From assembly GCA_001029775.1 (NCBI GenBank), contig CP011215.1, forward strand, positions 490,303 through 554,302: 64,000 bases of DNA, given 5' to 3'. The notes beneath the pieces are model-generated. The model searched no databases. It was not told where the DNA came from and saw only the letters and a list, made by a program, of their open reading frames with translations. A program made the position numbers and the translations under genes. Positions 3,814 through 54,505 of this stretch are shown here, one piece after another (within the stretch, counting starts at the first letter, position 1; every line of letters begins with the position of its first letter). The DNA is from Candidatus Campbellbacteria bacterium GW2011_OD1_34_28. Its GTDB lineage: Bacteria; Patescibacteriota; Minisyncoccia; Phycocordibacterales; UBA12079.

Positions 3814-3827
3814 CAAATCGCAAAAAA

Positions 3828-3864
3828 GAAACGCCAGTTCGAAAGAACTGGCGTTTCTTTTTTA
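3828..3864 (+). terminator. intrinsic terminator after tRNA-Glu
   Basis: AAACGCCAGTTC-GAAA-GAACTGGCGTTT + TTTTTT. Confidence 0.7.
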
Positions 3865-4028
3865 GAAAAGCAAACTGCTTTGCTTTTCGGCGATTTGTGA
3901 AGCCGGAGGCATAATTTTTCGAGCATCACGAGAAAAATAGCCGAGGCGAGGTCGACAAGTACTTAGATATTTTAGAACCCGAAGGGTTTTTAAATATTTA
4001 GTAACTTGTGACCACACAGATTTAGTCA
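3865..4028 (+). repeat. tRNA 3'-flank structured repeat element (Glu-CTC copy)
   Basis: GCAAACTGCTTTGC hairpin, GATTTGTGA (inverted copy of tRNA 3' end/trailer), core GAAGCCGGAGGC, variable hairpin, ACTTAGATATTTT...AAATATTTAGT hairpin, terminal TTGTGACCACACAGA; very similar to 44340..44565. Confidence 0.6.
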
Positions 4029-12746: not shown

Positions 12747-12837
12747 AAATTTCTTAAACATTATAATCCTAATACCTCAAATTATATCCGAATACTACGA
12801 ATCTTCTCCATCAAGACTTCTAATCACAAAATGTCGT

Positions 12838-12926
12838 GGATTGCTTCGCTTCGCTCGCAAAGACGAATTTCCTTCGGAAATTCGTCAGTGTTGGTTCGTC
12901 TTTGCGAGCGAAGCGAAGCAATCCAG
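12838..12926. repeat. perfect 29-bp inverted repeat with nested 11-bp hairpin; carries GAGCGAAGCGAAG motif
   Basis: GGATTGCTTCGCTTCGCTCGCAAAGACGAA ... TTCGTCTTTGCGAGCGAAGCGAAGCAATCC; centre GACGAATTTCC-TTCG-GGAAATTCGTC; lies between convergent 12248 ORF and dprA. Confidence 0.7.
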
Positions 12927-20506: not shown

Positions 20507-20640
20507 GCCGAGGTGGCGAATTGGATTAAAAACAAACTGCTTTGTTTTTAATCCGGTTCTGAGCGAAGCGAAGAAATTTCCGTTATCGAGTGAAGCGAGA
20601 TAGGAAATAGGTGGAAGACGCACTAGCCTCTGGTTAAATG
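20507..20640 (+). pseudogene. disrupted tRNA-Leu copy with repeat-module insertion
   Basis: starts GCCGAGGTGGCGAATTGG like the real tRNA-Leu; then AAACAAACTGCTTTGTTT hairpin plus GAGCGAAGCGAAG/GTGAAGCGAG insert; resumes AGACGCACTAGCCT. Confidence 0.55.
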
Positions 20641-20659
20641 AAGCAGGATTGAAAAATAG

Positions 20660-20741
20660 GTAATATAATGCCGAGGTGGCGAAATTGGTAGACGCACTAG
20701 CCTTAGGAGCTAGCGGGGCAACCCATGGAGGTTCAAGTCCT
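20660..20741 (+). tRNA. tRNA-Leu (anticodon TAG), class II
   Basis: acceptor GCCGAGG/CCTCGGC, anticodon loop CTTAGGA, long variable arm, T-loop TTCAAGT. Confidence 0.85.
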
Positions 20742-20790: not shown

Positions 20791-20966
20791 GTTTTTGTAG
20801 CCAGAGGAGAGGACTTGAACGGCGGAGGCGGTATACAAGACGAGCGAAGCGAGGGCTTGTCGCCGAGCCGCGTCCAGCAGTACTTAGGCTTTCGGAATCC
20901 GTAGCGAAGCGAAGGATGAGCGAAAGACTTAGTAACTGCGGGACAAGTCCTAACTTTTTAGCACAA
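20791..20966 (+). repeat. tRNA 3'-flank structured repeat element (Leu-TAG copy)
   Basis: GAGGAGAGGACTTGAAC (inverted copy of tRNA-Leu 3' end), core GAACGGCGGAGGCGG, hairpin with GAGCGAAGCGAGG, arm GCCGAGCCGCGTCCAGCAGTACTTAGGC ... AGACTTAGTAACTGCGGGAC, degenerate terminal CAAGTCCT. Confidence 0.6.
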
Positions 20967-20974
20967 AAACTTAG

Positions 20975-21010
20975 ACCCAGAAGCACCAGCTTCTGGGTCT
21001 TTGGTTTTTG
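20975..21010 (+). terminator. intrinsic terminator
   Basis: CCCAGAAGC-ACCA-GCTTCTGGG + TCTTTGGTTTTTG. Confidence 0.6.
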
Positions 21011-21087
21011 TAGTCACAAAACATTTGCTAAATCATTAATTTGTGAAATAATTATAATAATTAAAAATTAATTTAATTCAAAAAAAA

Positions 21088-23488: not shown

Positions 23489-24394
23489 ATGGCAACACTT
23501 TATACTCATCAAGATTCAAATATTAGGAAAACATGGTTTTTAATGACCGTGTTTTTCGTCATTATAATTTGTCTTGGTTGGGCGTTTAGTTATTATTTTG
23601 AAAATCCGGCAATTTTATCATTTGCAATTATATTCAGTATTTTGATGAATATTACCAGCTATTGGTATTCTGATAAAATTGCACTGAAAATGTCAGGAGC
23701 AATTCCGGCTGACGAAATAAAATTTCAAGATCTTCACAACATTGTTGAAAATCTTTCCATCACAGCGGGCCTTCCAAAACCAAGAGTTTATATAATAAGC
23801 GACCCTTCTCCAAATGCTTTTGCAACAGGTAGAAACGCAAAAAATTCTGCCGTTGCTGTTACCACAGGTCTTTTAGATATTTTGGAAAAGAGCGAACTAG
23901 AAGGTGTGATTGCGCATGAACTCTCCCACATAGGAAACAGAGATATTTTGGTTTCTACTGTTGTTGTGGTACTGGTTGGCTTTATTGCCTTGCTGTCGGA
24001 TATGTTTTTAAGAATGGCTATTCATGGTGGGGGCAGAAGCAATGATTCTGGGAACAAGGGCAAGGCTATTATCCTCGTAATTGGGCTAATTTTGGCCATT
24101 TTAGCACCTATTGCATCTACTTTGATACAATTAGCAATATCTAGAAAAAGGGAGTTTCTGGCCGATGCGTCGGGGGCTCTCTTAACTCGTTATCCAGAAG
24201 GCTTGGCAAATGCTTTAAAGAAAATATCCGCCAATCCAAATCAGTTACAAAAAGTAAGCAAGGCGACTGCTCATATGTTTATTGCGAACCCATTTAAAGG
24301 GAAAAACATCTCTAATCTATTTATGACACATCCCCCGGTAGAAGAAAGAATTAAAGCATTATTAGGTAAAAATAATCCGAATGACCCGAATTAA
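23489..24394 (+). CDS. htpX: M48-family zinc metalloprotease HtpX
   Basis: HELSHIGNRD (HExxH) plus TM helices. Confidence 0.8.
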   Translation: MATLYTHQDSNIRKTWFLMTVFFVIIICLGWAFSYYFENPAILSFAIIFSILMNITSYWYSDKIALKMSGAIPADEIKFQDLHNIVENLSITAGLPKPRVYIISDPSPNAFATGRNAKNSAVAVTTGLLDILEKSELEGVIAHELSHIGNRDILVSTVVVVLVGFIALLSDMFLRMAIHGGGRSNDSGNKGKAIILVIGLILAILAPIASTLIQLAISRKREFLADASGALLTRYPEGLANALKKISANPNQLQKVSKATAHMFIANPFKGKNISNLFMTHPPVEERIKALLGKNNPNDPN

Positions 24395-24459
24395 ATCCTA
24401 ATTCCCCGAATTATCGAATCATCCGAATTTTATCACTTGTAATTCGTATTCGTAATTAT

Positions 24460-25404
24460 TTGGGGCATTCGGATATAATTTGTAGATTCGGATTATATCT
24501 TATGAAAGAAAATACCCATCTTTATTTTGCGGAAAAGGTTTTTGATTGTTTAGAAAATAAAAATCTTAGAAAAATTTTAAAAGAAAATTTTGATTATTAT
24601 GTTTTAGGAAGTGTTTTTCCTGATATTTTTTATCATAATAAAAAAACATCTGAAATATCCCAGATTATCCACGGAAGGGAATTGGAAAAAACCAATGAAT
24701 TGATATTTGATTTCTTAAATTATGCGAAAGAAAAGCAGGATGAAAAAAGTTTGGCCTTTACATTGGGATATATTTCTCACTATGTTTTGGATTCAAAATT
24801 GCATCCAATTGTTTATTTTTTGACAGGAAATTATTATGACAAAGATCAAACAAAAAGATTTTCTGCAATGTTACGTCACCGTCAATTAGAGACATTTTGG
24901 GATAAAAAACTAACAAAAGGATTTTCTCTTTGTAAAAAAGTAAAAATATCTTCGTTAAATGATCTAAGTCTGACGAATATAATTTTTGAAAAATACGAAA
25001 TAAATAAAAAGACTTTCATCTCTATTTTTAAGCAGTGCAAAATAAATAATAGGTTGTTTAGAAGTTATACGACTTATCTATTGTTTATTTTTTTGATTAA
25101 AGTCGGTTTATACAAAAACAAAACTGTTGATGGATTTTTTTTGTTCACCAAAAACAAAAATCTAGAAAACATAAGTAATGATTTAAGTTACAGAGATTTA
25201 ATTACAGGTGAACACAAAAAAGAAAATCTTTTGGATTTGATGAAAAAAACAGAGTTTTATTCAAAGGATTTGTTGGAATCAGCGTATGAATATTATTTGG
25301 GGAAAATAAGCATATTGGAATTGGAGAGAACAATTCCAGGCGTCAGTCTGGATACTGGTAAAATAGATTTTTCTGTCGAAAGTATTGTCTATACTAAATA
25401 TTGA
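24460..25404 (+). CDS. hypothetical protein, possible metal-dependent hydrolase (zinc phospholipase C-like His/Asp pattern); probable start near 24503
   Basis: H..YFAEK, GSVFPDIFYH and GYISHYVLDSKLHP motifs; weak. Confidence 0.3.
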   Translation: MGHSDIICRFGLYLMKENTHLYFAEKVFDCLENKNLRKILKENFDYYVLGSVFPDIFYHNKKTSEISQIIHGRELEKTNELIFDFLNYAKEKQDEKSLAFTLGYISHYVLDSKLHPIVYFLTGNYYDKDQTKRFSAMLRHRQLETFWDKKLTKGFSLCKKVKISSLNDLSLTNIIFEKYEINKKTFISIFKQCKINNRLFRSYTTYLLFIFLIKVGLYKNKTVDGFFLFTKNKNLENISNDLSYRDLITGEHKKENLLDLMKKTEFYSKDLLESAYEYYLGKISILELERTIPGVSLDTGKIDFSVESIVYTKY

Positions 25405-25406
25405 TT

Positions 25407-25940
25407 TTATTCAACAAAAGTAAAAGATGAGACAATTTGAAGAAGGTCTTTTTTGATTATTTTGTCTTCCATATTCCAAGCAACAAACAAAAATTCATAA
25501 TTGTCTTTTGATGTAGTATAAACTTCACCATCGTTATAATTCATACCTTTTTGGTTTGCAACAAGGATCTCTTCTTTTGAAAATGGATCCATTCCACTTG
25601 GAGGAGCGAGACTGTCATCGCTATTTTCTACTTTTGCGATATTAACCAAAATTTCTTTTTGAGAACTGTTTGTTAGTTGGATTGTTTGGATAACACCTCC
25701 TGGTTGATCTCCATCGTTCCATTTGAAATCTTTTATTTTGTAATTTTTAGGATAATCAAATTTGAATCCATATTCTTGGTTTTGATATGTTCTTGTCTCA
25801 ATAATAGTTTTTTGTTCTTTCTGGATAGGGACATTTTCAGCAGTGGCTTTTTCAATGTTTTTGTTTTTAACAAATAAAAATGCAACAAAAGATGCCAATA
25901 TCAAAGCTATTATGGAAATAAGAATTATAAATTTTTGCAT
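25407..25940 (-). CDS. hypothetical membrane-anchored protein
   Basis: 177 aa with N-terminal TM helix. Confidence 0.45.
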   Translation of the reverse strand: MQKFIILISIIALILASFVAFLFVKNKNIEKATAENVPIQKEQKTIIETRTYQNQEYGFKFDYPKNYKIKDFKWNDGDQPGGVIQTIQLTNSSQKEILVNIAKVENSDDSLAPPSGMDPFSKEEILVANQKGMNYNDGEVYTTSKDNYEFLFVAWNMEDKIIKKDLLQIVSSFTFVE

Positions 25941-26016
25941 GGGTTAGATTTTAACATATTTTGATTCTTTTTATAAATTTTTTTTCCTGCGATATAATTA
26001 TTTTTTGTAAAAATAA

Positions 26017-26628
26017 TTATAAAGCTATTGTAGAAAGAACTGCTTGAAGATCAGTATCCTTTTTTTGTACCTCTATCGTAGGATAGCCGTATTTTTCGGC
26101 TTCTGCTCTAAGTTTATGACTAAAATCCAGCACCCACTCTATTTCTTTTGGTTTGAGGTCATCTGAATATTTTTTTGCATCATCCCAAAGTCCACGATTG
26201 TATATAACATCTTTTATTCTGTCTGCATCTTCATCCACTAAAAATACAGACGTAATTTCTTTGTTATTAGAAAAGTCTTTGGCTACTAGATGCGGTAATA
26301 TACCAACCCCTTCCATCACAAACCCTTTTTTCCATGTGTAATCATTTTCAATAAATTTTTTAATACCAACCCATACTGCCTCACTTTGTTCTAATTCTAT
26401 ATCTGCTATTTCTGAAGCAGAAAATTCAGTCAGAAATTTTTGAGCGTCATAACCTTCAATATTGAATAGTTTTGGATAATCTTCTCTTCGAGCAACGAGA
26501 CGCATGGTTTCTCGTATTTGGTCGGTAGAAATCCAAGGTAGATTCAAATGTTTTGCAACCAAAGCAGCCATAGTTGATTTACCAGTTGTGGGCGCTCCTC
26601 CTATAAGAATAATTTTTTTTGTTTTCAT
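26017..26628 (-). CDS. P-loop NTPase, nucleotide-kinase-like
   Basis: Walker A IGGAPTTGKST at the N-terminus. Confidence 0.55.
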   Translation of the reverse strand: MKTKKIILIGGAPTTGKSTMAALVAKHLNLPWISTDQIRETMRLVARREDYPKLFNIEGYDAQKFLTEFSASEIADIELEQSEAVWVGIKKFIENDYTWKKGFVMEGVGILPHLVAKDFSNNKEITSVFLVDEDADRIKDVIYNRGLWDDAKKYSDDLKPKEIEWVLDFSHKLRAEAEKYGYPTIEVQKKDTDLQAVLSTIAL

Positions 26629-26644
26629 GGTTTGAATTATTATT

Positions 26645-26844
26645 TTGCGGAGGGTACGAGATTCGGCGCCAGTTCTAAATAAAATTTTCGTCCTGCAGAC
26701 TTAATTTTATTAAGAACTCGCTGCCCCCGCTCACTCGTGTTCGTCGCTTCGCTCCTCCATACTCGCTCGGTTCGAATCTCTTCCCCTCGGTGTAACGACA
26801 CAAAACAAAAACAGTGCATTGGTACTGTTTTTGTTTTGGTCGTG
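26645..26844 (-). repeat. tRNA 3'-flank structured repeat element (Ser-GGA copy)
   Basis: minus strand: terminator, GAGGGGAAGAGATTCGAAC (inverted tRNA-Ser 3' end), CGAGCGAG...GGAGCGAAGCGACG core, hairpin GCGAGTTCTTAATAAAATT/AATTTTATTTAGAACTGGCGC, terminal direct repeat CGAATCTCGTACCCTCCGCA. Confidence 0.6.
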
Positions 26845-26929
26845 CGGAGGGTACGAGATTCGAACTCGTGAAGGCTTTCACCTTGCCGCCTTTCCAAGAC
26901 GGTGCACTCGACCGCTATGCGAACCCTCC
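26845..26929 (-). tRNA. tRNA-Ser (anticodon GGA), class II
   Basis: acceptor GGAGGGT/ACCCTCC, anticodon loop TTGGAAA, long variable arm, T-loop TTCGAAT. Confidence 0.85.
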
Positions 26930-32329: not shown

Positions 32330-32470
32330 TTTATATTTTTTACGAAAAGCGTGGGGGCGCTTTTCTTTGACTATGATGACTCGACTTCCAGTTCTAATCG
32401 AAAATTTCGTCTTCACTTCGTTACAACTCATTTTCGATAAGAACTCGCTGTCCCGTCGCTCATATTTTTC
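32330..32470 (-). repeat. solo/degenerate copy of tRNA-flank repeat module (no adjacent tRNA)
   Basis: rc: GAGCGACGGGACAGCGAGTTCTTATCGAAAAT...ATTTTCGATTAGAACTGGAAGTCGAGTC; same hairpin module as the Ser copy. Confidence 0.45.
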
Positions 32471-32549
32471 TATATACAAAACACCTAGAATTTTTGTTAA
32501 TTTTGTAATATAATTCAAGATATTTTAAGTTTTTAACTTTTGATATTTG

Positions 32550-32709: not shown

Positions 32710-32748
32710 CATTGAAATTTTTTGAAATTTCAATACAATAGTGTATTA

Positions 32749-32992
32749 TCCGCTCGTAGCTCAGCTGGATGAGAAGCGTTGAAGCTTCGAATCCGAGCGA
32801 AGCGAGGTGGAAGAGTATTCCTTTGAAATGTAAGAGTCGGATGCTAATACACTTAGCATGGACTTCAGAGGTTTTACACAAAAGTAAAAGTAGAGATATC
32901 CGCTCGTAGCTCAGCTTCTGCCAAAGGCAGACAGGGTCCGAGCAACAATCATTGAGACAGACAAGTCTGTAAAATCATCATGGATTTAGTAT
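32749..32992 (+). pseudogene. two truncated 5' copies of tRNA-Lys each followed by unrelated structured sequence
   Basis: TCCGCTCGTAGCTCAGCT(GG) occurs at 32749, 32899 and 32991; only the third continues into a full tRNA; copy 1 is followed by CTTCGAATCCGAGCGAAGCGAGG. Confidence 0.55.
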
Positions 32993-33447: not shown

Positions 33448-33681
33448 CAAAAAGAAGACCCGCAAGGGTTTTTCTTTTTGTTGGGTCCACGAACAAAGCA
33501 ATCTAAATTGCTTTGTGTAGGACGAGAACGGCGGAGCGGTTTACAATTTTAGTAAAATTTTCCAACAAAGAAAATCTTACTAAAATTGTCGCGAGCCGCG
33601 TCCAGCGATACTTAGACTTTTTGAAACACGAAGTGTTTCAAAAAGACTTAGTAATCGCGGGACAGTCCTCGTGGGCCCGCA
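33448..33681 (+). repeat. tRNA 3'-flank structured repeat element (Trp copy)
   Basis: terminator hairpin, GTAGGACGAGAACGGCGGAGCGG core, variable hairpin, arm GCGAGCCGCGTCCAGCGATACTTAGAC + long hairpin TTTTTGAAACACGAAGTGTTTCAAAAAG + AGACTTAGTAATCGCGGGAC, direct repeat AGTCCTCGTGGGCCCGCA of the tRNA-Trp 3' end. Confidence 0.65.
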
Positions 33682-33683
33682 AT

Positions 33684-33718
33684 TTAAAAACTCTCCACAA
33701 AAGTGGAGAGTTTTTAAA
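33684..33718. terminator. bidirectional terminator
   Basis: AAAAACTCTCCAC-AAAA-GTGGAGAGTTTTT. Confidence 0.7.
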
Positions 33719-33720
33719 TT

Positions 33721-34047
33721 CTAGATCTTATGAGATATTTCATCAATACGTTGTCTATTTTTTTCACCTCTGTCAATTTCAAAATCAAAGAAGGGAATCC
33801 TTTTCATTCTTACCTTTGGTTTGATGAATTCTTTGAAGTCTCTTCTTTTTCTTTTTAAAAAATTAATTACAGATTCTTCACTTGTTTCAGGATAAACGGT
33901 AACAAAAATAGTGGCTCTTTTAAAGTCTTTTGAAACACTGGCATCGGTTACAGTTATTAGGGAAGTATAGTTTGATTCTTCCTGTAAAAATTGAGCCGCT
34001 TGATTTCTTATTAGTTCTTTTACTTTGTCCTGTCTTAAATCAGTCAT
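33721..34047 (-). CDS. rbfA: ribosome-binding factor A
   Basis: KH-like RbfA fold, RVQELIRNQ-type N-terminus, C-terminal basic tail. Confidence 0.8.
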   Translation of the reverse strand: MTDLRQDKVKELIRNQAAQFLQEESNYTSLITVTDASVSKDFKRATIFVTVYPETSEESVINFLKRKRRDFKEFIKPKVRMKRIPFFDFEIDRGEKNRQRIDEISHKI

Positions 34048-42051: not shown

Positions 42052-42080
42052 TAAAAAACCCTCCTTCTTGGAGGGTTTTT
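42052..42080. terminator. bidirectional terminator
   Basis: AAAAAACCCTCCTTCTTGGAGGGTTTTTA. Confidence 0.7.
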
Positions 42081-43290
42081 ATAATGCCAAATTTCCTTCT
42101 GCTCTGATCTTTCCCGTTTTGTTTGGTAGTAGAATCTTGTTATCTAAATATCTAAAATAACTCGCAATTCCTATCATCACGGCATTGTCAGTAGAGTGTT
42201 TTGCATCGGGTATCAAAATATTAATACTCAATTCTTTTTCCAATTTTTTAAATTCTTTTCGTATTTTTTTATTTGCGGTTACACCACCTCCCAAAATCAA
42301 TGTCTTTATATCATTTTTTGCGATAGCTTTTTTTGTTTTTAAAAGTAGTACATCTACAACTGCATCTTCAAATTCTGCACAAATTTCTTTTTTTATTTCG
42401 GGCGTCACTTTTTTAATATTTTTGACGGTATACAAAACAGCCGTTTTTAATCCGGAAAAAGAAAAATCAAAGTCGTTTGTATGAAGCATTGGACGAGGTA
42501 GAGTAAAGTTTTTAGTTTTTAGTTTTAAGTTTTTAGAGAATTCTTCGGAAAGTTTTGATATTTCAGGACCGCCTGGGTAGGGGAGGCCGAGCATTCTTGC
42601 TACTTTGTCATAAGCTTCACCGACAGCATCATCTCTGGTTTGACCGATCAATTTATAATCCATCCAATCCTTAATCAGCACTAACTCTGTATGACCTCCA
42701 CTTATCAATAAACCAAGAGCAGGAAACTCAACTCCTTTATACTTGCTACTTGTTACTTTTGACTTGAGGAGCGAAGCGACGAGGTGTCCTTCCATATGAT
42801 TAACAGGAATAAAAGGTTTGTCCCACGCCAGTGCCAAAGCTTTTGCAAAATTTATTCCTGTCCAAAGAGCCGGTTCCAACCCTGGTCCTTGTGTCACAGC
42901 GATTGCATCAATTTTGGGAATTTTGTGTGTTTTAACAAATTCTAACAACGGTTCGGCTATCTCAATTTCTCTTTCTAGTATTTTATGTATCTTATTTGTT
43001 GTTTGTTTGGAAATTGGAAATTGGAAATTGAAAATTTTATTTTTGGAATTGCTTACGGGATTTAATAGACCCCCTTTTTTTAATGTTGTTAAAAGAATCG
43101 GTAATAAATTCTTAGTGTGCTCCCTTTTTGCGAGAGCAGGGAAGACACCCCCATACTCTTTGTGGATATTTATTTGAGAAATAATAGTATCAGCAATAAT
43201 CTTGAACTGAGGTTTTTTTAATCCTCCTTTTGCTTCAATTATGCTAATTGCTGTTTCATCGCAACTTGTTTCTATTGCTAATATCTTCAT
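42079..43290 (-). CDS. tsaD: tRNA N6-adenosine threonylcarbamoyltransferase TsaD (Kae1/Gcp) with ~50-aa insertion
   Basis: MKILAIETSCDETA, HMEGH and GGVAAN-type motifs; insertion carries tandem GGAAATT heptamers (43010..43050). Confidence 0.8.
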   Translation of the reverse strand: MKILAIETSCDETAISIIEAKGGLKKPQFKIIADTIISQINIHKEYGGVFPALAKREHTKNLLPILLTTLKKGGLLNPVSNSKNKIFNFQFPISKQTTNKIHKILEREIEIAEPLLEFVKTHKIPKIDAIAVTQGPGLEPALWTGINFAKALALAWDKPFIPVNHMEGHLVASLLKSKVTSSKYKGVEFPALGLLISGGHTELVLIKDWMDYKLIGQTRDDAVGEAYDKVARMLGLPYPGGPEISKLSEEFSKNLKLKTKNFTLPRPMLHTNDFDFSFSGLKTAVLYTVKNIKKVTPEIKKEICAEFEDAVVDVLLLKTKKAIAKNDIKTLILGGGVTANKKIRKEFKKLEKELSINILIPDAKHSTDNAVMIGIASYFRYLDNKILLPNKTGKIRAEGNLAL

Positions 43291-44339: not shown

Positions 44340-44565
44340 ATTTATAATCTAGAGGATTCTTATTTTGCTTGTTTAGGAATGCTTCGCATACTAAATCTGT
44401 GTGGACACAAATCACTAAATATTTTTTTCGCCCTTTGGGCTCAAAAATATCTAAGTGTTTGTCGTCCTCGGCTCGCGGTTTTTGTCTCTTTGTGAGAGAC
44501 AAAAACATTGCTCCGCCTTCACAAAGCTAAAAAAGCAAAGCAGTTTGCTTTTTCTTAACGCTTTG
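44340..44565 (-). repeat. tRNA 3'-flank structured repeat element (Glu-TTC copy)
   Basis: minus strand: GCAAACTGCTTTGC terminator, CTTTGTGAAGGCGGAGC core, hairpin GTTTTTGTCTCTC/GAGAGACAAAAAC, CGCGAGCCGAGGACGAC...ACTTAGATATTTTTG...AAAAATATTTAGT, terminal TTTGTGTCCACACAGA; close to the Glu-CTC copy. Confidence 0.6.
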
Positions 44566-53810: not shown

Positions 53811-54056
53811 CAAAATAAAAACAGGTGTAGCGAAAGCTCCGCCTGTTTTTATTTTGTGTTCTCACAGAAAGCAAACTGCTTTGCTTTCGTCAGGAATCGA
53901 ACGGTGGAGCATGTCGCACGCAAGTTATTTTCTCCCACAAAGAGAAAATAACGAGTACGACAGCGAACCGCGTCCAGCGATACTTGGGATTTTTTGAAAC
54001 ACGAAGTGTTTTGAAAAAGACTTAGTAATCGCGGGACGATTCCTGGTGAGAGCACA
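53811..54056 (+). repeat. tRNA 3'-flank structured repeat element (Arg copy; best-preserved)
   Basis: GCAAACTGCTTTGC hairpin; GTGTTCTCAC..TCAGGAATCGAAC = rc of tRNA 3' half; core GAACGGTGGAGC; variable hairpin; CGAACCGCGTCCAGCGATACTTGGG + long hairpin + AGACTTAGTAATCGCGGGAC; terminal direct repeat CGATTCCTGGTGAGAGCACA. Confidence 0.7.
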
Positions 54057-54106
54057 TATTAAAAACAAGTTTACTTTGATGTTTTTTTTGATATACTTTT
54101 GTTTAT

Positions 54107-54227
54107 GGATCCCGTTAGAGATAGCGAACGCATAGCGGGATAAACAACAGAATCAATTTATTAATATAATTTAAATAGATAGAACGTGTGATTATATAAA
54201 GTTCGCGTCCTATCTCTAACGGGATGG
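54107..54227 (+). promoter_or_regulatory. long-range inverted repeat whose 3' arm ends at the start codon of ORF 54224
   Basis: GGATCCCGTTAGAGATAGCGAACGC ... GTTCGCGTCCTATCTCTAACGGGATGG; at least 16 perfect bp across a ~70-nt loop; ATG at 54224. Confidence 0.45.
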
Positions 54228-54505
54228 AATATTTTGATCCAGAATTACAAAATTTGATGAGGGAAAATCTCAAAGTTGCTAATGAGAACAATGAATTGCT
54301 TCACAAAATTTGGAGAGATGTTCAATATAAGAGATTTCTCAAATTTTTTTATTGGGGAATAATAATTGCCATTACTTTTGGTGCATATTATTATATCCAA
54401 CCAATCATAGATTCAATTTCTGAAAATTATGGTAGTTTGAGAGGAGGACTTGATGTAGGTATCAAAAATTTTCAAAAAATAAATGATTTGATTCCCAAGA
54501 TTTAA
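54224..54505 (+). CDS. small hypothetical membrane protein
   Basis: 93 aa; central TM helix FFYWGIIIAITFGAYYYI. Confidence 0.4.
   Translation: MEYFDPELQNLMRENLKVANENNELLHKIWRDVQYKRFLKFFYWGIIIAITFGAYYYIQPIIDSISENYGSLRGGLDVGIKNFQKINDLIPKI

Follow-up and report, generated by a model that had tools for sequence, protein, structure and literature searches.

A 143-base non-coding, hairpin-rich element without a real ORF lies 3' of the tRNA-Ser(GGA) gene in the 64-kb Candidatus Campbellbacteria window (the whole stretch of DNA that was analysed), bounded by an inverted copy (X') and an exact direct copy (X) of the tRNA-Ser 3' end. It belongs to a family that is found behind many different tRNA genes across the Patescibacteria (CPR bacteria) and is apparently undescribed so far, full-text literature searches having returned no description of such tRNA-linked elements. 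Most likely, with a probability that we put at roughly 0.45, the family consists of non-autonomous mobile (integrative) DNA elements that target the T-loop/3' end of tRNA genes; this reading has a serious rival in a functional RNA that is transcribed together with the tRNA.

The tRNA-Ser(GGA) gene was located at 26844..26929 on the minus strand by ARAGORN (with its edge at 26844/5) and by the Rfam tRNA model (50 bits). CCA is not encoded, and CA follows the discriminator G. Between the tRNA 3' end and X' lies an AT-rich, terminator-like but weak hairpin (26801..26838, minus strand), for which the repeat search gave a perfect 15-bp stem (26801-26815/26824-26838) with an 8-nt loop and flanking A- and T-tracts, and which was not called by a simple terminator scan. 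X' (GAGGGGAAGAGATTCGAAC, 26770..26788, minus strand) repeats tRNA positions 53 to ~71 imperfectly and in inverted orientation. The repeat search aligned it with 26847-26865 over 19 nt at 89% complementarity, and a 3'-end probe scan gave 15/19 matches, with 12/13 in the T-part. It terminates in GAAC, the complement of G53-T54-T55-C56, a rule common to all family members. The original prediction had described just such an inverted tRNA 3' end after tRNA-Ser and its terminator, and the strings that it quoted for this copy read exactly so on the minus strand.

The direct repeat that it had reported proved equally exact. X (26646..26665, minus strand) is a 20-nt direct copy of the tRNA 3' end, the sequence TGCGGAGGGTACGAGATTCG being found by the repeat search at both 26646-26665 and 26843-26862 with 100% identity. 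Given a probability of 4^-20 per position pair, an exact 20-nt repeat within 200 nt is far above chance. X spans the segment from mid T-loop (about C56/G57) through the T-stem 3' strand, the acceptor 3' strand and the discriminator, plus CA. It pairs with X' at 14/16 positions; the first acceptor pair is unable to form and the T-loop is absent, and the element was not called as a tRNA by ARAGORN or the Rfam tRNA model.

The structured body between X' and X (26666..26769, minus strand) is composed of P2 and P3. According to the covariance-model alignment, the P2 region (CGAGCGAGTATGGAGGAGCGAAGCGACGAACACGAGTGAGCGGGG) occupies 26725..26769 (minus strand) and contains the recurrent module GGAG-(GCGAAGC mini-hairpin)-CGAAC. 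The sequence GAGCGAAGCGA is over-represented in the window, with 9 sites against 0.39 expected; its site at 42769 was considered as an insertion and rejected, being ordinary TsaD coding sequence (HMEGHLVASLL). The P3 hairpin (GCAGCGAGTTCTTAATAAAATT...AATTTTATTTAGAACTGGCGC, 26666..26724, minus strand) was recovered by RNA folding, by the covariance-model alignment and by the repeat search (26668-26686/26703-26721, 19 nt, 89%). It carries a T.T mismatch in a CTTAA/TTTAG context and an apex of the C-GNA-G type. The P3 stem known from the Trp, Arg and Leu copies appears here in a 'type 2' version, which has homologues at loci L021, L023, L008, L005, L015 and L034. Outside the element, the ORF list contains a P-loop kinase-like gene (26017..26628, minus strand; Pfam AAA_28 and Cytidylate_kin2), whose ATG lies 18 nt downstream of X on the same strand. 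A promoter scan found no sigma-70-like promoter between tRNA-Ser and this gene, so the element is probably part of the kinase transcript.

Six family elements were found in the window, behind Ser-GGA, Glu-CTC, Leu-TAG, Trp, Glu-TTC and Arg-CCT, i.e. at 6/11 of its tRNAs, which bears out the proposal of a tRNA-linked family with inverted and direct 3'-end copies. The original prediction, which offered no mechanism, had not named the two tRNA-Glu loci among its copies. The elements are ~130-230 nt long and share the order tRNA, A-tract/hairpin/T-tract, X' with its terminal GAAC, P2 stem, P3 stem and X. The Ser copy shows all four defining features: a position 3' of a tRNA on the same strand, an X' ending in GAAC, the P2/P3 fold and an X starting from the T-loop. 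Three members have the type 1 body. In the tRNA-Leu(TAG) member (20799..20975, plus strand; model match at 20808-20954 with 116.9 bits, as a training copy), X shows partial decay and is followed at 20966-21012 by another copy of the terminator with three compensated stem changes. The tRNA-Trp member (33483..33682, plus strand), recognized from its sequence and by the model, has a small hairpin inserted in X' at the acceptor/T-stem junction, and its X is identical to tRNA-Trp over 19 consecutive nt. The tRNA-Arg(CCT) member (53858..54057, plus strand), supported by sequence, probe scan, fold and model, likewise has an X' with an inserted hairpin and an X that is an exact 19-nt copy of the tRNA; both the Arg and Trp copies fold as an acceptor-like helix plus a side hairpin. 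The remaining two members are divergent. In the tRNA-Glu(CTC) member (3892..4023, plus strand; 29.8 bits, E 1.4e-6) the antisense segment, at 3890-3901, corresponds to the trailer plus the final three bases of the tRNA and leaves out the T-arm, and the tRNA-Glu(TTC) member (44393..44529, minus strand; 31 bits, E 5.9e-7) has the same short-antisense layout.

In addition, the 'solo copy' at 32330..32470 (minus strand), which had been said to match the Ser module, does so, both carrying CAGCGAGTTCTTA...TTAGAACTGG. The tRNA-Trp array has a second element, of type 2, and the solo copy is the 3' part of it, comprising the P2 3' arm, P3, a decayed tRNA-Trp-type X ('tcgagtc...') and the terminator. 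A rearrangement has cut it off from its own 5' part, which a 99%-identical strain retains beside the Trp element. The same genome also contains a classical MITE at 54103-54232, with the TIR CCCGTTAGAGATAG and a 5-bp duplication.

As a check that the original prediction had suggested, a covariance model was built on the commoner type 1 body from the Trp and Arg copies and 24 foreign copies, with Leu also in the training set, and was searched against the window and loci fetched from other Patescibacteria genomes. The Ser copy, with its type 2 P3, was matched over the full length of the model at 26655-26782(-) with 34 bits (E 8.5e-8), which bears out the view that its hairpin module is a diverged version of that in the Trp and Arg copies. 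A total of 55 copies were detected. A tRNA lies upstream on the same strand in 46/55 and on the opposite strand in 0/55; the remainder comprise 7 at locus edges and 2 without a nearby tRNA. The tRNA-linked copies represent 24 isoacceptors, and the spacing from the tRNA to the first element is 36-82 nt. Across all loci analysed the layout is present at 38/64 tRNAs, a fraction that is biased upward because the loci were picked for containing elements.

A genome scan with the body pattern returned 27 stretches, every one of them from Patescibacteria or an unclassified MAG. No Rfam family was matched by the whole window or by two elements alone, either at the gathering threshold or at permissive E-values, where only tRNAs and chance matches appeared; the best chance-level match of the elements was sR16 (21 bits against a 70-bit threshold). 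Scans of viral contigs gave 0 matches to the P3 pattern and 5 to the P2 pattern, all of them by chance in 61-67% GC contigs without tRNAs, and revealed no episomal or viral copy of the elements.

Both ends of every copy match its own neighbouring tRNA, so that X' and X vary by locus. X' is the reverse complement of positions 53 to 73 of this tRNA plus the trailer, often with a 25-nt hairpin inserted exactly at the acceptor/T-stem junction, and X is a direct copy from mid T-loop towards the 3' end. Across the family X' always ends at the complement of G53 and X begins at positions 55-57; the boundary of the element therefore lies in the T-loop, which is the classical crossover place of tRNA-integrating elements. 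The T-part of X' retains 92% identity, and the acceptor part of X is bimodal, being either identical to the tRNA (8/8) or near random, the pattern expected of a displaced copy on which no selection acts. The complementarity of X' is kept at 82-92% while X decays. At its outer side X' carries on with TTGT.., which complements the genomic trailer, and not with TGG.

These ends recall the tyrosine-integrase islands and prophages that integrate into tRNA genes, in which the att identity block begins in the T-loop or the anticodon loop and extends as far as the tRNA 3' end. As in those elements, a direct repeat of the tRNA 3' segment bounds the insert, identity starts from the T-loop, the tRNA is intact, arrays arise by repeated insertion and the displaced copy decays. 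Unlike them, the family has no integrase or any other gene, measures only 130-230 nt, carries an inverted tRNA copy and combines one scaffold with ends for many tRNAs. A search of 30 window ORFs and of 20 ORFs adjoining elements in other genomes revealed no integrase, transposase or reverse transcriptase, and the element loci lie in housekeeping neighbourhoods without mobile-element genes. The natural-transformation protein DprA, a point in favour of mobility, and RNase III are both encoded in the window. It is very unlikely that the Ser copy is the decayed attL/attR scar of an ordinary integrase-carrying island or prophage once integrated in tRNA-Ser. Its direct repeat from the T-loop is the classical integration signature, and the locus varies, in that the gene cassettes upstream of the element differ among strains whose kinase is 99% identical; but the 143 nt between the repeats form a conserved fold common to other tRNAs and genomes, the inverted copy X' is not found in ordinary att scars, and the ORF list and Pfam gave no integrase remnant at the Ser locus. 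The family evidence largely refutes this explanation.

A replication error could also leave a direct-inverted-direct triplication, if the template were switched twice, at the terminator palindrome and at a palindromic T-loop (TTCGAA), and hairpin modules later gathered at the centre. The layout has exactly this order, with junctions in the terminator loop and the T-loop, and the palindrome is often unbroken from the tRNA 3' end through the trailer and terminator into X'. The duplication may even reach the trailer and terminator, which also counts for the mobile-element reading, as in the Leu copy with its second terminator and at locus L023 with its duplicated trailer, and small hairpin modules recur elsewhere in the window. 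Against this, the X' boundary stays fixed even with non-palindromic T-loops such as TTCAAGT, the body is not random filling, its P2/P3 sequence being conserved and its structure covarying across distant Patescibacteria, and independent accidents would not repeatedly produce one scaffold at 24 isoacceptors. We consider such a by-product quite unlikely, if somewhat less so than an att scar.

The fold of the body is conserved with covariation: 91% of cells are paired against 78% in shuffles, and 0/500 shuffles were as good. The modules have been reshuffled, as they do not track tRNA identity; the nearest relatives of each P2/P3 are always at other tRNA species, sometimes in other genomes, and P3 apexes are 94-97% identical across different tRNAs within one genome. 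P3 carries mismatches and a bulge (A.G, bulged A, T.T). Among 60 predicted hairpin loops, 28 are triloops, 17 of these GNA, and none is a GNRA tetraloop; C-GNA-G loops are typical of stable DNA mini-hairpins, not of structured RNAs. In most copies P3 folds more stably on the tRNA strand, with summed energies of -849 vs -749 kcal/mol. A strand test based on G-U versus A-C pairs seemed decisive at first, with 22 vs 6 in whole P3 folds, but was set aside as equivocal, because one lineage shares a tandem wobble and the counts on the alignment are balanced (18 vs 14 in P1, 2 vs 4 in P2 and 5 vs 3 in P3). Several known motifs were rejected by inspection: a kink-turn for the recurrent GA...GAA internal loop, which has no 3-nt bulge in the right polarity, and, on conserved positions, group II intron domain V (GAGCCG...) and the hammerhead core.

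A functional structured RNA also has to be weighed seriously. Such an RNA would arise when transcription of the tRNA reads through the weak hairpin, and would combine a P2/P3 scaffold with a locus-specific antisense X', which could pair with the tRNA 3' end and trailer, or with X as a tRNA-like acceptor/T helix. As a processing signal, either an RNase P/Z 't-element' or a site for RNase III, whose gene is in the window, it could release the tRNA from the RNA downstream; it could also be a regulator or sensor of the tRNA 3' end. We hold this to be possible. The strict same-strand linkage and fixed spacing behind 24 isoacceptors in housekeeping contexts argue for it, as do the complementarity of X' maintained despite the decay of X, the target-matching segments interleaved with conserved scaffold, and the absence of a promoter-like site before the kinase gene. 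The strong covariation, the folding scores (z = -11.7 for Arg and -4.2 for Ser, whose sense strand folds better than the antisense) and the greater stability of P3 on the tRNA strand, with more G-U pairs, point the same way. Moreover, the optional hairpin sits where the 5' strand of a real tRNA exits the acceptor/T helix, a structural and not a sequence rule.

X'-X with the discriminator and CA imitates an acceptor/T-stem helix, and the side hairpin lies where the D and anticodon arms would leave it, as in plant mitochondrial t-elements, mascRNA-type mimics and RNase P guide duplexes; but in the elements the T-loop either is paired or gives way to a large body, degeneracy of the acceptor part is frequent and tRNA models are silent. 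The Ser copy has neither the first acceptor pair nor a T-loop. The family has not preserved the outer part of P1; in many copies the acceptor part of X is random, and G-U and A-C are about equally frequent in P1. X' follows the genomic trailer instead of the mature CCA end and is therefore not tuned to the mature tRNA. The lack of GNRA tetraloops and of a matching Rfam family also speaks against a functional RNA, for which arrays, truncated copies and strain rearrangements would be atypical.

Tandem arrays and truncated copies or fragments are in fact common in the family, and strains that are ~99% identical differ at the elements. One such difference is a 100-nt insert in the body of the Ser element; another is an inversion with its breakpoint inside the P2 loop of an element, and the inversion between the window and strain L039 was not derivable as a single event. 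Such strains also differ in a 93-nt unit that lies between 18-nt repeats of the tRNA-Lys 5' end; this 5'-side unit is the only clean presence/absence seen. Strains L034 and L035 have rearrangements at the Ser locus. For the 3' elements, comparison of strains and distant loci gave no clean pair of filled and empty sites. The kinase homologue loci L030-L033 have another context and no element, and a metagenome scan with the tRNA-Ser 3' end for empty sites returned only two distant loci with the same 3' end and no element, which say nothing on the boundaries.

As mobile DNA, the family resembles MITEs, REP, BIME, Correia and BOX repeats and IS200/IS605-derived PATEs in being small, non-coding, multi-copy, hairpin-forming and modular, often co-transcribed with neighbours and polymorphic between strains. 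It differs from MITEs in that there are no fixed terminal inverted repeats, the ends copying the local tRNA 3' end, and no short target-site duplication; in the Ser copy nothing is duplicated but the 20-nt tRNA segment, which itself forms an arm of the inverted repeat. With integron attC sites and CTX phage attP(+) the elements share imperfect hairpins with conserved mismatches and bulges, and their inverted copy could make a recombination site double-stranded within one strand. The attC core boxes (RYYYAAC/GTTRRRY) are absent, X' ending in ..TTCGAAC but X of the Ser copy beginning with CGAAT and not GTT, and an attC identity was rejected when the conserved positions were inspected. A link with IntI or Xer would be hypothetical, as would single-strand activity. 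X' also resembles retroviral/LTR primer-binding sites, which lie at the 5' edge of their element and are complementary to ~18-24 nt at the 3' end of a tRNA, except that its complementarity follows the genomic trailer and not CCA, and reaches G53, and that no reverse transcriptase was found.

The architecture, the fold, the tRNA linkage, the locus-specific ends, the arrays, the strain rearrangements and the reshuffling of modules are all observed. On the mobile-element reading, we infer insertion by site-specific recombination, an enzyme to carry it out and a single-stranded DNA or RNA as the active form. The elements would insert at, or recombine with, the segment from the T-loop to the 3' end of a tRNA gene, leaving the tRNA intact, and the duplicated 3'-end segment X would be att-like and mark the far boundary. 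X' turns this segment, with the tRNA 3' end and the terminator, into a long palindrome, and the folded single strand may present a target-like site as a duplex, comparable to folded attC or CTX phage attP.

How a single scaffold comes to have ends matching many different tRNAs is not accounted for by a simple integrase model, nor is the placing of target-matching segments between conserved scaffold (acceptor part, hairpin, T part, body, X), an interleaving that looks more like the guide segments of an RNA. The presence of elements at more than half of the tRNA loci, in housekeeping settings, would also fit a host function. It is conceivable, though doubtful, that the elements are programmable like guide RNAs. 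The P2/P3 scaffold with a two-part antisense, split by a scaffold hairpin, would then recognise the 3' end of one tRNA gene or transcript and lead to insertion or retention, or to tRNA-specific processing or quality control. If true, this would be a previously unknown system of tRNA-partner RNAs, with one RNA for each tRNA and confined to the reduced genomes of Patescibacteria.

Whichever reading holds, the family is a marker of rearrangement hot spots among near-identical strains and accounts for many 'partial tRNA' signals in CPR genomes, and the covariance model can be used for its annotation. If the elements are functional RNAs, Patescibacteria would have dedicated structured RNAs attached to individual tRNAs, with a bearing on tRNA maturation or control with a reduced RNase set. 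If they are mobile, they would represent a new lifestyle of selfish DNA at tRNA genes: gene-free, shorter than 250 nt, with ends that copy whichever tRNA adjoins, and occupying more than half of the tRNA loci in very small genomes. The questions would then be which enzyme moves the elements and how their ends become matched to each new tRNA.

Behind the tRNA-Ser(GGA) gene (26929..26844, minus strand), an AT-rich hairpin whose 15-bp stem is perfect (26838..26801) is followed on the same strand by an inverted copy of the tRNA 3' end, X' (GAGGGGAAGAGATTCGAAC, 26788..26770), a body made of the helices P2 and P3 (26769..26666), and a direct copy of the tRNA 3' end, X (CGAATCTCGTACCCTCCGCA, 26665..26646). 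The ATG of a P-loop kinase-like gene lies 18 nt past X, also on the minus strand. All sequence strings quoted in the original prediction were found as stated on this strand, and the claimed identity with the tRNA 3' terminus was borne out, since X reproduces the tRNA exactly from C56 in the T-loop to two bases past the discriminator. X' is the reverse complement of tRNA positions 53 to ~71 with 4 mismatches in 19, and it pairs with X at 14 of 16 positions. The tRNA-Ser/element region is identical to the window at every base in GCA_000990865.1 and GCA_003456895.1, and the kinase shows 100% identity to proteins named Campbellbacteria. A promoter scan of the stretch from tRNA-Ser to the kinase gene found no sigma-70-like promoter, and the AT content of the hairpin between the tRNA and X' is too high for a simple terminator rule to call it. 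The Ser element thus probably shares a transcript with tRNA-Ser and the kinase mRNA.

The same layout follows tRNA-Leu(TAG), tRNA-Trp and tRNA-Arg(CCT) in the window, and both ends of each copy fit its own tRNA. The body of these three copies (type 1) consists of GAAC / GGYGGAG, a variable hairpin (P2) and GAGCCGC on the P2 side, and of GTCCAGCRRTACTTAG, a variable hairpin top and CTTAGTAAYYGCGGGAC on the P3 side, followed by X; its RR/YY positions covary (GA/TC, AG/CT, GG/CC). Scanning one genome per species for the exact pattern gave 27 stretches, all from Patescibacteria (Campbellbacteria, Paceibacterota, Yonathbacteria, Woesebacteria and ‘Saccharibacteria’ MAGs) or unclassified MAGs, nearly all with the order tRNA, terminator, X', body, X, and with ends that fit the local tRNA. 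A covariance model trained on 27 type-1 copies, including the window Leu, Trp and Arg copies, gave three more matches in the window: the Ser element over the full model length (26655-26782(-), 34 bits, E 8.5e-8), and the elements behind tRNA-Glu(TTC) (31 bits) and tRNA-Glu(CTC) (29.8 bits). This search, which had been proposed as a check, places the Ser copy in a tRNA-linked family, as predicted, and the family is larger than first listed, with an element behind six of the 11 tRNA genes of the window.

In the model alignment, the Ser body combines a diverged P2 with a P3 of another type, AGCGAGTTCTTAAT...ATTTAGAACTGGCGC (type 2), in agreement with the earlier description of its hairpin module as a diverged version of the Trp and Arg one; the solo copy at 32330-32470 (-), to which the module had also been matched, is another type-2 homologue. 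Close type-2 homologues stand behind other tRNAs in other Patescibacteria genomes (loci L021, L023, L008, L005 and L015). Arrays and the Glu copies contain a third P3 type, GGTCG.GAG.ACTTA...TTAGT.ACT.GTGACC, and a central T.T mismatch in a CTTAR/YTTAG context is kept in the P3 helix of all three types. The divergent Glu elements (3815-4023 (+) and 44393-44564 (-)) lie behind both tRNA-Glu genes; in each, a small AAAGCAAACTGCTTTGCTTT hairpin precedes an antisense segment that covers only the last three tRNA bases and the trailer (GCGATTTGTGA / GCTTTGTGA), and no clear X was found after this segment.

Across the window and the fetched loci, 46 of the 55 model matches have an upstream tRNA on the same strand and none has one on the opposite strand, while seven lie at a locus edge and two have no tRNA within 1.2 kb. 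The matches involve 24 isoacceptors, and that of the first element starts 36-82 nt past the tRNA. X' was found within 140 nt of 38 of the 64 tRNAs in all loci examined, a proportion biased upward by the choice of loci containing elements; the model had no match in the five kinase-homologue / tRNA-Ser loci without evident elements. X' always ends in GAAC (sometimes GAAA or GAAG), the complement of G53-T54-T55-C56, with any T-loop sequence, and X starts at tRNA positions 55-57. X' usually runs past the tRNA into the trailer complement, so that a single long palindrome, in many cases perfect, spans the tRNA 3' end, trailer, hairpin, trailer' and X', and X' matches the gene or primary transcript rather than the CCA-tailed mature tRNA. 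None of the 11 window tRNA genes encodes CCA; all 11 have CA after the discriminator, usually as CAAA or CACA, and the X copies include this CA. At no fewer than 11 loci, including the window Trp and Arg copies, a hairpin of ~25 nt (AG-stem-loop-stem-CGT) is inserted in X' exactly between the complements of positions 66 and 65, that is, at the acceptor/T-stem junction. Identity to the tRNA is 92% in the T-part of X', at least 82% in its acceptor part and 90% in the T-part of X. Values for the acceptor part of X are bimodal, with copies at 8/8 or close to random (mean 55%); the window Ser, Trp and Arg copies belong to the intact group.

Many loci have tandem arrays or fragments (for example in L003, L008, L014, L020, L023 and L029). 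The closest P2 or P3 top of every copy lies at a different tRNA species, the variable modules being independent of tRNA identity. For some copies this relative belongs to another genome, as with L021 Pro for window Arg (80% and 92%), L005 Phe for window Trp (80% and 86%), and L007 Ala for window Leu (85% in P2), and P3 tops across different tRNAs of one genome are 94-97% identical; this likeness points either to copying from one tRNA locus to another or to gene conversion among copies. A tRNA-Ser(GGA) gene near an M48 peptidase gene is present in three Patescibacteria genomes; the element behind it has a type 2 body in the window (23489-26929) and a type 1 body in L004, and in L023 a type 2 body is joined by an array. 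Since the locus is occupied in all three with differing bodies, it stays filled while its occupant turns over.

The strain represented by L039 (~99% identity to the window) has no counterpart of a 93-nt unit that precedes tRNA-Lys in the window, where it lies between 18-nt direct repeats of the tRNA-Lys 5' end. Between the two strains, the tRNA-Cys..Trp block with the Trp element is inverted relative to its flanks; one pair of junctions (window 32483-32491 / 33716-33724) carries the 9-nt inverted repeat CTAGAATTT, and the other breakpoint falls within the P2 loop of a second Trp element. Beside its Trp element, L039 retains the 5' part of this second, type-2 element, broken at the P2 loop, and the solo copy is the matching 3' part, with a decayed X of the tRNA-Trp type. 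L039 also lacks the NTP_transf_6 gene region at this block, and no derivation of the inversion as a single event was found. In L034 and L035 (kinase 99% identical), the Ser element body is ~100 nt longer than in window 26640-26850, and no tRNA-Ser lies beside it (positions 1473-2000), other element-like hairpins standing upstream instead. Also upstream are two unrelated gene cassettes whose divergence point is one and the same base, directly ahead of AGCCCGCCC, which matches the tRNA-Phe T-arm over 9 nt; the match is only a lead, and the divergence point may be an integration hot spot.

We tentatively favour, at a probability of about 45%, a non-autonomous mobile or integrative element, because four of the features observed are marks that integration in the T-loop of a tRNA leaves: the direct repeat begins in the T-loop, the displaced tRNA-end copy decays, the duplication may take in trailer and terminator, and arrays form. 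The inverted copy and the tRNA-like segment would build a duplex within one strand, and the element might recombine as a folded single strand, by analogy with attC sites or CTX phage; arrival by natural transformation is conceivable. The hardest point for this reading is that a single scaffold has ends fitted to many tRNAs, with the fitted segments interleaved with the scaffold. Both points are easier to grasp if X' is a selected guide-like RNA segment, and a functional co-transcribed RNA (a tRNA-like processing signal, an RNase III site or a tRNA-specific partner) therefore stays a strong rival, though on balance rather unlikely. We see a small but real chance that the family is a programmable tRNA-specific RNA system, further removed from known kinds.

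The Arg copy is predicted to fold into an acceptor-like helix, a side hairpin, a T-stem-like helix and a junction with P2 and P3 (-94.6 kcal/mol, z = -11.7); the fold of the Ser copy is similar and weaker (z = -4.2, against -3.0 for the complement strand). In the 27-sequence alignment, 91% of P1/P2/P3 cells are paired compared with 78% in column shuffles, part of P3 having been fixed by the search pattern, so that its invariant columns are uninformative and the covarying columns are free positions and stem tops. None of 500 shuffles and no slid register came near this value, and 19 pairs show changes on both sides. A pure replication-error origin would leave this conserved body unexplained and is very unlikely; an ordinary island scar fails in the same respect and is the most improbable of the origins considered. 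P3 stability favours the tRNA strand in the majority of copies (summed energy -849 vs -749 kcal/mol), and G-U pairs in P3 folds are commoner on it (22 vs 6, several wobbles coming from one lineage), while alignment-based counts of G-U vs A-C are balanced (P1 18 vs 14, P2 2 vs 4, P3 5 vs 3). Triloops make up 28 of 60 predicted hairpin loops, 17 of them GNA (GCGAAGC, GTCC-GTA-GGAC etc.), and none of the 60 is a GNRA tetraloop, whereas several terminators adjoining elements have GAAA or GCAA loops. C-GNA-G loops are a hallmark of unusually stable DNA mini-hairpins, and here they are a lead toward, not proof of, a single-stranded DNA form.

Related modules were also seen elsewhere in the window. 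Upstream of tRNA-Leu(TAG) and tRNA-Lys(CTT), 5'-side counterparts (20507-20669 and 32739-32992) have direct copies of the tRNA's first ~18 bases; after these come hairpin modules, which interrupt the D-loop (GAGCGAAGCGA motifs, then ...GGTGGAAGA), and more tRNA-derived sequence. The Lys counterpart holds an antisense copy of the anticodon-arm region (TAAGAGTCGGATGC), and one of its units is the 93-nt unit missing from L039. A long near-perfect intergenic palindrome at 12830-12925, with GAGCGAAGCGA on both arms (CGTGGATTGCTTCGCTTCGCTCGCAAAGACGAATTTCC...), carries the same module as the tRNA-linked elements but has no nearby tRNA. Several tRNA transcription units (Cys, Trp, Phe, Leu(TAG) 5' copy) share a TTTTTAACTTT-like motif 10-25 nt upstream, which may be a local promoter element; at Leu(TAG) it stands before the 5' pseudo-copy rather than before the functional tRNA. 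GGAGCGAAGCGACGAGG at 42765-42781 was rejected as an element motif, since it encodes LVASLL after the conserved HMEGH in the TsaD gene (42079-43290, minus); motif matches inside ORFs can thus be coincidence.

No Rfam family matched the elements, a viral contig scan found no viral copy, and a full-text literature search found no description of such elements. The genes adjoining them are housekeeping genes, and RNase III and DprA are encoded in the window. No integrase, transposase or reverse transcriptase was found among 30 window ORFs or 20 ORFs beside elements in other genomes. A classical MITE of ~117-130 nt occurs in the same genome (window 54103-54232; L039 2683-2800), with a TIR (CCCGTTAGAGATAG...) and a 5-bp TTCAT duplication, in contrast to the tRNA-linked elements; a second copy, in L039, lies right at the L21 start codon and is missing from that site in the window (about 31124). 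If mobile, the tRNA-linked elements would work like tRNA-integrating elements but without an integrase, and they look like MITEs but without family-wide terminal repeats or a short target duplication. The family would then consist of small non-coding elements that target tRNA genes, with the inverted copy as its new feature.
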